A stretch of 50,469 bases of DNA. It comes from Escherichia phage Kalemo. The notes beneath the pieces were generated by a model. That model was not told the DNA's origin and made no database searches. It saw only the letters and a list, made by a program, of their open reading frames with translations. This document shows, in pieces, positions 50,311 through 50,469 of this stretch (the first letter of the stretch is position 1; every line of letters starts with the position of its first letter). The position numbers and the translations under genes were made by a program. The DNA lies in the sequence record PP925822.1; one strand, given 5' to 3'.

Positions 50311-50410
50311 TTAACAGCGTGAACAGAAAAATAACAGCCCTGAAATCAACAACTTGCGCATGATTTTGTAGTTTTTCGATATTGGTAACGTTTTGAATAC
50401 AACAAAAACA

Positions 50411-50438
50411 TTGACACGCACCAAATAGCTTTTATAAT
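50411..50438 (+). promoter_or_regulatory. near-consensus sigma70 promoter (TTGACA-16-TATAAT)
   Basis: TTGACA at 50411-50416 and TATAAT at 50433-50438, A-rich upstream; drives ORF at 1 across the circular junction. Confidence 0.6.
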
Positions 50439-50469
50439 GCGCCAACAGTCAACAACTGGAGGAAAGGAA

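Follow-up and report, generated by a model that had tools for sequence, protein, structure and literature searches.

Evidence that the Escherichia phage Kalemo sequence is a complete genome with a circular map, opened between the ribosome-binding site and the start codon of its first rightward gene

The 50,469-nt sequence of Escherichia phage Kalemo (PP925822.1), which in its full length is the window analysed here, very probably represents a single genome length of a phage whose map is circular. The record is opened at the ATG of ORF1, the first rightward gene, in keeping with the T1 orientation, and carries the expression signals of that gene at its 3' end. Comparison with related phages supports a complete genome whose two ends are contiguous, and for practical purposes the sequence can be handled as a whole phage genome whose map is circular. 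Analyses of Kalemo should join the ends; otherwise, ORF1 seems to have neither a promoter nor a ribosome-binding site (RBS), and a 560-bp control region seems orphaned.

The contiguity of the two ends was examined with a joined query of 821 nt, composed of the last 353 nt followed by the first 468 nt, which was searched against the phage collection. Matches at 95-99% identity are found in 44 phage records, and in 43 of these the junction is present as one internal piece (97-99% identity). Aligned to the Warwickvirus vB_EcoS-95 (50,910 bp), Kalemo is an exact circular permutation, with positions 1-33424 corresponding to 16159-49163 of the relative and positions 35280-50469 to its 1-16158. The Kalemo ends 50469|1 thereby fall on 16158|16159 of vB_EcoS-95, with zero bases gained or lost. 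In total, 92.6% of Kalemo is aligned, and the unaligned blocks are all internal cassettes, namely the tail-fibre region and several places where small genes have been replaced. At the level of individual bases, GGAGGAAAGGAA|ATGGAACAG across the junction is identical in 8 of the 10 aligned relatives; JLBYU26 differs only just outside this stretch (C for T before GGAGG), and the junction in the IMG/VR contig L008 reads GGAGGAATCACG|ATG. The Kalemo ends are adjacent in independent relatives without missing or duplicated bases, as the original prediction had claimed when it proposed that the two ends abut. No terminal direct repeat of 10-3000 nt is common to both ends of Kalemo, indicating that any assembler overlap has been trimmed, and because of this absence the closure had to rest on relatives. 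On the circularised sequence, the only open frame across the junction is that of ORF1 itself, and the GC skew changes from -0.13 to +0.06 across the ends.

The claim that the window holds a complete genome is likewise sustained by these alignments, in which Kalemo is a permuted counterpart of a 50,910-bp relative with its differences confined to internal blocks, and by its collinearity with T1, which extends unrotated from terS to the leftward helicase, with terS starting at 8783 in Kalemo and 8396 in T1, and terL at 9352 and 8945, respectively. The comparison of genome lengths that had been proposed as a check places Kalemo inside the range of its relatives (48.5-52.7 kb). In addition, the 1.47-kb end region of Kalemo has zero matches among 5,426 complete E. 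coli genomes, which speaks against Kalemo being a prophage or part of some larger replicon and agrees with the earlier view that the sequence is not a fragment of one. We regard it as scarcely credible that the window is part of a larger replicon (a prophage, a bigger phage or a plasmid) with a closure that is coincidental, given the exact permutation of a complete 50.9-kb phage genome, the length within the genus range and the end region unmatched in complete E. coli genomes; nothing in favour of this reading was found, and an integrase-type module was also not found in the vB_EcoS-95 or T1 annotation tables used for synteny.

The last 60 nt of Kalemo, read directly, are ...ACA TTGACA CGCACCAAATAGCTTT TATAAT GCGCCAACAGTCAACAACT GGAGG AAAGGAA, and position 1 onward reads ATGGAACAG. 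This segment contains a sigma70 promoter at 50411..50438 (+), composed of the -35 hexamer TTGACA (50411-50416), a 16-nt spacer, 1 nt under the 17-nt optimum, and the -10 hexamer TATAAT (50433-50438). The promoter scan scores the site 12/12, and the hexamers that had been predicted as near-consensus are in fact perfect. The RBS GGAGGAAAGG follows at 50458..50467 (+) with its core GGAGG at 50458-50462, and AAAGGAA (50463-50469) leads to the ATG at 1-3. After joining, the Shine-Dalgarno (SD) core and the ATG are 7 nt apart, confirming that the RBS and the start codon stand at the expected distance only across the joined ends. From the position of the hexamers, transcription is predicted to start near 50444-50446.

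Scanning both strands, we found the site at 50411..50438 to be the sole TTGACA-N16-18-TATAAT of Kalemo, and the only other sites scoring at least 11/12 lie at 32835 (+) and 35767 (-). In dinucleotide-preserving shuffles of the genome (n = 100), a perfect consensus occurs by chance 0.06 times per shuffled genome, with at least one in 6 of the 100 shuffles; by count alone, the rarity of the promoter is therefore suggestive, being only modestly unlikely. What makes the promoter convincing is its placement and its conservation. It is located in non-coding DNA from which transcription diverges, some 30 nt ahead of the ATG, and nine Warwickvirus relatives share the same hexamers, spacing, SD and start, with two single-base differences only, both outside these elements. 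A search of viral contigs with ORF1 returned two loci only, one of which, in L008, is informative. The L008 ORF1 is 60% identical to that of Kalemo, and the contig keeps TTGACA, the 16-nt spacing, TATAAT, GGAGGA and the ATG, while the spacer (CGTCGCGCGGCCTGAT) and the leader have diverged. The sigma70 hexamers and their spacing are thus conserved beyond the neighbouring bases in this one informative relative, a pattern that, as read from a single diverged relative, would be the expected trace of selection on a working promoter and RBS. It is accordingly improbable, in our estimate, that the match arose by chance and that ORF1 owes its expression to read-through or to a different signal. Such a reading could draw on the perfect matches seen among the shuffled genomes and on the lack of a promoter of this kind at the equivalent place in T1 and TLS; against it stand the location of the site just 5' of an SD and an ATG in non-coding DNA between divergent genes, and the retention of hexamers and spacing in L008 despite a changed spacer and leader.

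The gene served by these signals, ORF1 (1..465, +), encodes 154 aa of the family DUF7174/phrog_4841 and is by position the counterpart of T1 ST77 and TLS gp01. Its match to PF23796 (DUF7174; E = 4.5e-51, 173 bits against a cutoff of 27) extends over profile positions 2-153 of 153, so ORF1 is complete from the ATG at base 1. Similarity to T1 ST77 is weak (27% identity, E = 7e-5), and the same 465-nt coding sequence is annotated in independent records. On the circularised sequence, an in-frame ATG at 50437-50439, 33 nt upstream, would make a 165-aa product. We rejected this extended form of ORF1: the upstream ATG lies within the -10 hexamer (TATAATG) and is without an SD, L008 does not conserve the 11 added residues, and the match to the DUF7174 profile starts downstream of them. 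A gene caller applied to the rotated genome could still choose it.

P22 packages its DNA by sequential headfuls from a pac site, and P22-type TerS proteins often recognise pac inside terS itself. Kalemo encodes a TerS of the P22 gp3 type at 8783..9352 (+; coordinates of the open frame as listed, the true start of which may be slightly downstream). This protein is 54% identical to T1 TerS, matches phrog_606, belongs to the P22 gp3 family by its score against PF16677 GP3_package (43.5 bits versus a cutoff of 29.4) and matches P22 gp3 in the PDB (3p9a) with E = 2e-15. The adjacent TerL (9352..10920, +), which matches Terminase_6C and phrog_38, shares 65% identity over 520 aa with T1 TerL (ST53) and is thus the orthologue of a terminase from an experimentally characterised headful phage; a sequence search of TerL against solved structures gave zero matches. 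The portal protein gene follows at 10985..12283 (+; PF06381, E = 2e-74), syntenic with the portal genes of vB_EcoS-95 and T1. For T1 and TLS, headful packaging from pac has been described, yielding virion DNA in three to four variants that are terminally redundant and partially permuted. In TLS, pac-initiated headful packaging was shown by restriction mapping, with submolar restriction fragments, and the low-resolution assignment of its pac draws in part on a short stretch that resembles the pac of P22. The Warwickvirus vB_EcoS-149_6D was classified as 'Headful (pac)' by PhageTermVirome, and the authors of the SU57 report placed pac in the untranslated region (UTR) before the small rightward ORFs and found SU57 DNA to be without cos behaviour; in some T1-like phages, clear termini are absent by PhageTerm. 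Taking the homology of TerL and TerS together with the T1, TLS and Warwickvirus literature, we infer that Kalemo almost certainly uses pac-initiated headful packaging as T1 and TLS do, which supports the packaging mode originally proposed. This much of the biology is already known: pac/headful packaging is textbook knowledge for T1-like phages, and rotation of assemblies by their depositors is routine.

The point at which the Kalemo record is opened follows a pattern seen in related records. The T1 record (NC_005833), which annotates a terminal repeat_region of 2.8 kb (1..2800), likewise starts within this divergent intergenic region, 538 nt upstream of its first rightward gene; the TLS record (AY308796) opens 588 nt before gp01, at the assigned pac sequence AGATTT; XY3, declared circular, opens 479 nt before its counterpart of ORF1, which is numbered 00001; and the record of ityhuna (MN850582) opens 62 nt before the ORF1 ATG. 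Other relatives are opened at terS or elsewhere, at many different points. The KanT1 authors state that they orient to the T1 reference, since T1-like headful phages are without fixed ends. The original prediction had described the genome as arbitrarily linearised. That a circular map has been linearised holds, but the opening follows the T1-map convention, given that T1, TLS, XY3 and ityhuna are opened in the same region; the Kalemo cut is thus conventional, placed in T1-map orientation and trimmed to the first ATG, and not arbitrary. Trimming a T1-map opening to the first ATG causes the expression signals of ORF1 to wrap to the 3' end.

The alternative in which 50469|1 represents true fixed termini (cos ends or short exact direct terminal repeats) is very improbable, and no positive evidence for it was found. 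The record is cut precisely between SD and ATG, which looks like the choice of an annotator, no repeat is common to the two ends, and the relatives are contiguous here and opened elsewhere. Moreover, the terminase belongs to the headful type of T1 and P22, and the absence of cos behaviour in SU57 DNA points in the same direction. Reads with fixed physical ends at the junction had been named as the outcome that would speak against a closed map; since a pac-site start with limited permutation would produce a preferred end nearby, a test of this kind must tolerate one.

In ityhuna, the joined ends are without about 222 bp (Kalemo 50185-50407) that are present in all other relatives. The gap is bracketed in Kalemo by a 28-nt imperfect inverted repeat (50181-50208 and 50385-50412), and it may be either a real deletion or the product of an unclosed or trimmed assembly at the record ends.

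The DNA upstream of the rightward promoter is a non-coding divergent control region (49856..50410, no strand assigned), which lies between the leftward repeat-type and the rightward consensus promoters. The small leftward genes reach about 49778, and the rightward genes begin at 1. On the leftward side, a repeat-type promoter module at 49812..49855 (-) contains a 21-nt repeat (49855-49837) and a -10-like TACATT 38 nt downstream of the first base of the repeat, and is the putative promoter of the first leftward gene (ATG at 49778). Within the control region, we find TAATCA-rich 24-nt units with two TAATCA motifs each (49884-49907 and 49956-49979), TATATATA-type palindromes (50163-50182, 50245-50257 and 50280-50292) and an exact 11-nt direct repeat, CGGCGGATTGC, at 50268 and 50299. 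These repeats are candidate protein-binding sites, belonging to pac, to an origin or to a regulator. A 115-codon ORF with a TTG start (49975-50322, +) overlaps this area and is an annotated CDS in vB_EcoS-95 (gp32, 'two transmembrane domains') and in JLBYU26 (JLBYU26_28); owing to its low-complexity translation and its overlap with AT-rich palindromes, it is probably not a gene.

By analogy with T1 and TLS, the control region at 49856..50410 would be the expected location of pac. In those two phages, the assigned pac ends precede the first gene by 538 and 588 nt, so a preferred physical end, with limited permutation, would be expected in Kalemo about 0.5 kb upstream of the junction, and a terminus analysis of Kalemo should return a preferred start a few hundred bp upstream and not a flat profile. 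We lean slightly towards a first-headful pac cut within about 49.9-50.4 kb, in which case Kalemo would roughly equal the molecule filled by the first headful once its terminal redundancy is taken away, with an offset of a few hundred bp. This placement gains from the T1 and TLS records, which open at the assigned pac ends, from the assignment of the SU57 pac to this UTR and the opening of XY3 in the same stretch, and from the clustered TAATCA units and palindromes, which could bind a protein. It is weakened by the low resolution of the pac assignments in the literature, by the frequent recognition of a pac inside terS by P22-type TerS proteins, and by the lack of DNA homology between the intergenic region of Kalemo and the pac-proximal regions of T1 and TLS, in which alignment was limited to the last leftward gene and the 21-nt repeat. 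As the intergenic DNA itself is not alignable with that of T1 or TLS, the pac position is drawn by analogy only. A pac cut near the 3' end would refine, and does not contradict, our preferred explanation of a unit-length genome opened at the ORF1 start codon.

The repeat found in the leftward module recurs across the genome. The T1-like 21-nt repeat ATAGCACnnnTTGnTAAAA is present in 20 copies in Kalemo, compared with 0.33 expected by chance, with example sites at 722, 1185, 2403, 3878, 39650 and 40720 on the + strand and at 46817, 49349 and 49855 on the - strand. A -10-like hexamer starts 37-38 nt after the first base of the repeat in 17 of 20 copies in Kalemo, 17 of 21 in T1 and 17 of 19 in TLS (binomial P of about 1e-17 for this spacing in each of the three), and a GC-rich hairpin is often located between repeat and hexamer. 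The fixed 37-38-nt offset means that the repeat occupies about -50 to -32 of a promoter without a proper -35, and this arrangement suggests that it may be the site for a phage-specific activator or for sigma appropriation. In the TLS paper, which reports few sigma70-like promoters and 18 intergenic 21-nt repeats, the function of the repeat is listed as an open question.

The junction promoter differs from these modules in that no 21-nt ATAGCAC repeat is found upstream of 50411..50438. In the first 700 nt of the T1 and TLS records, the best promoter-like sites before the first rightward gene score 10/12 (T1, before ST77) and 9/12 (TLS), and no canonical promoter of at least 11/12 was found ahead of that gene in either phage. 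Without an equally strong canonical promoter in T1 and TLS, the role of an 'immediate-early promoter' is not transferable from them, and the perfect promoter seems confined to two lineages, Warwickvirus and that of contig L008. A possible immediate-early role, in which the unmodified host polymerase reads the junction promoter, would be consistent with its lack of a repeat and its standing as the only 12/12 site.

Combining these elements, we propose the following course of events for a unit-length genome opened as described above. Immediately after infection, unmodified host RNA polymerase would start near 50445, make a leader of about 25 nt and transcribe rightward through the small early genes towards terS, and most other transcription units would depend on the different, repeat-associated type of promoter. 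By homology with T1 and TLS, the virion DNA would be linear, terminally redundant and partially circularly permuted, and the P22-type TerS/TerL would cut concatemers from a pac hundreds of bp upstream of the junction and package rightward by headfuls. In its strongest form, which we put forward as a tentative and rather doubtful extension, this would amount to a two-tier programme: the junction promoter would be the sole rightward promoter requiring host RNA polymerase only, situated just downstream of the pac end and inside the terminal redundancy, and nearly all other units would be read with a phage-encoded factor from ATAGCACnnnTTGnTAAAA-type promoters, in which the repeat replaces the -35 at the 38-nt offset. 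If true, the two-tier programme of T1-like phages would be analogous to sigma appropriation and would answer the question raised for the TLS repeat.

By nucleotide similarity and gene order, Kalemo is a virulent T1-like coliphage of the genus Warwickvirus (Drexlerviridae, Tempevirinae). ICTV practice sets the genus at about 70% nucleotide similarity, and the species criterion is about 95% similarity over the whole genome. The best matches of Kalemo are about 60 records of E. coli phages at 95-99% identity, and the records fetched from among them are classified as Warwickvirus. The alignment with vB_EcoS-95, at 92-98% identity over the aligned portion, gives a product of coverage and identity of about 0.89, and members of the genus cover 85-98% of each half of Kalemo at 95-98% identity (vB_EcoS-95, swan01, tonnikala, tunus, SECphi27, mar001J1, JLBYU26 and tiwna being the Warwickvirus genomes compared in this way). 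The gene order is T1-like, from the early small genes through terS-terL-portal-head-tail, recombination, primase/helicase and lysis to the leftward small genes. After rotation, the Warwickvirus members share this order with Kalemo, together with the same promoter, SD, ATG and 465-nt first gene, whereas they differ from it in internal cassettes and in the points at which their records are opened.

Relative to vB_EcoS-95, Kalemo carries small replacements at 5433-5804, 25371-25912 and 47170-48023. Neither megablast nor blastn matched positions 33425-35279 to vB_EcoS-95; this stretch, inside the - strand ORF 33419-35605, takes in most of the lateral tail-fibre gene together with its C-terminal end. 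The flanks are 92-97% identical, and the difference is a host-range cassette swap typical of the group. Five small leftward genes, which form a 1.24-kb block in vB_EcoS-95 (14243-15483), are absent from Kalemo at 49794-49857; the flanking alignments overlap by 64 nt on a repeat/promoter module, which suggests gain or loss of the cassette by recombination between modules.

Compared with more distant systems, Kalemo resembles P22 (gp3/gp2) in its TerS, a member of the gp3 family, and probably in sequential headful packaging from a pac site. In T1 and TLS, pac was mapped some 8-9 kb upstream of terS and not within that gene. TLS (Tlsvirus), of the same subfamily and a different genus, has the same layout and a record opened in the same intergenic region, the DNA of which is unconserved except for the repeat and the last leftward gene. 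T1 stands further away, in the Tunavirinae: only about 46% of Kalemo aligns with it, at 64-73% identity, the intergenic DNA is not alignable, and its record begins at the pac end and reaches the first gene 538 nt later, whereas that of Kalemo begins at the ATG. Nevertheless, the two phages share the same map orientation without rotation, collinear modules, a divergent intergenic region at the map origin and the 21-nt repeat modules.
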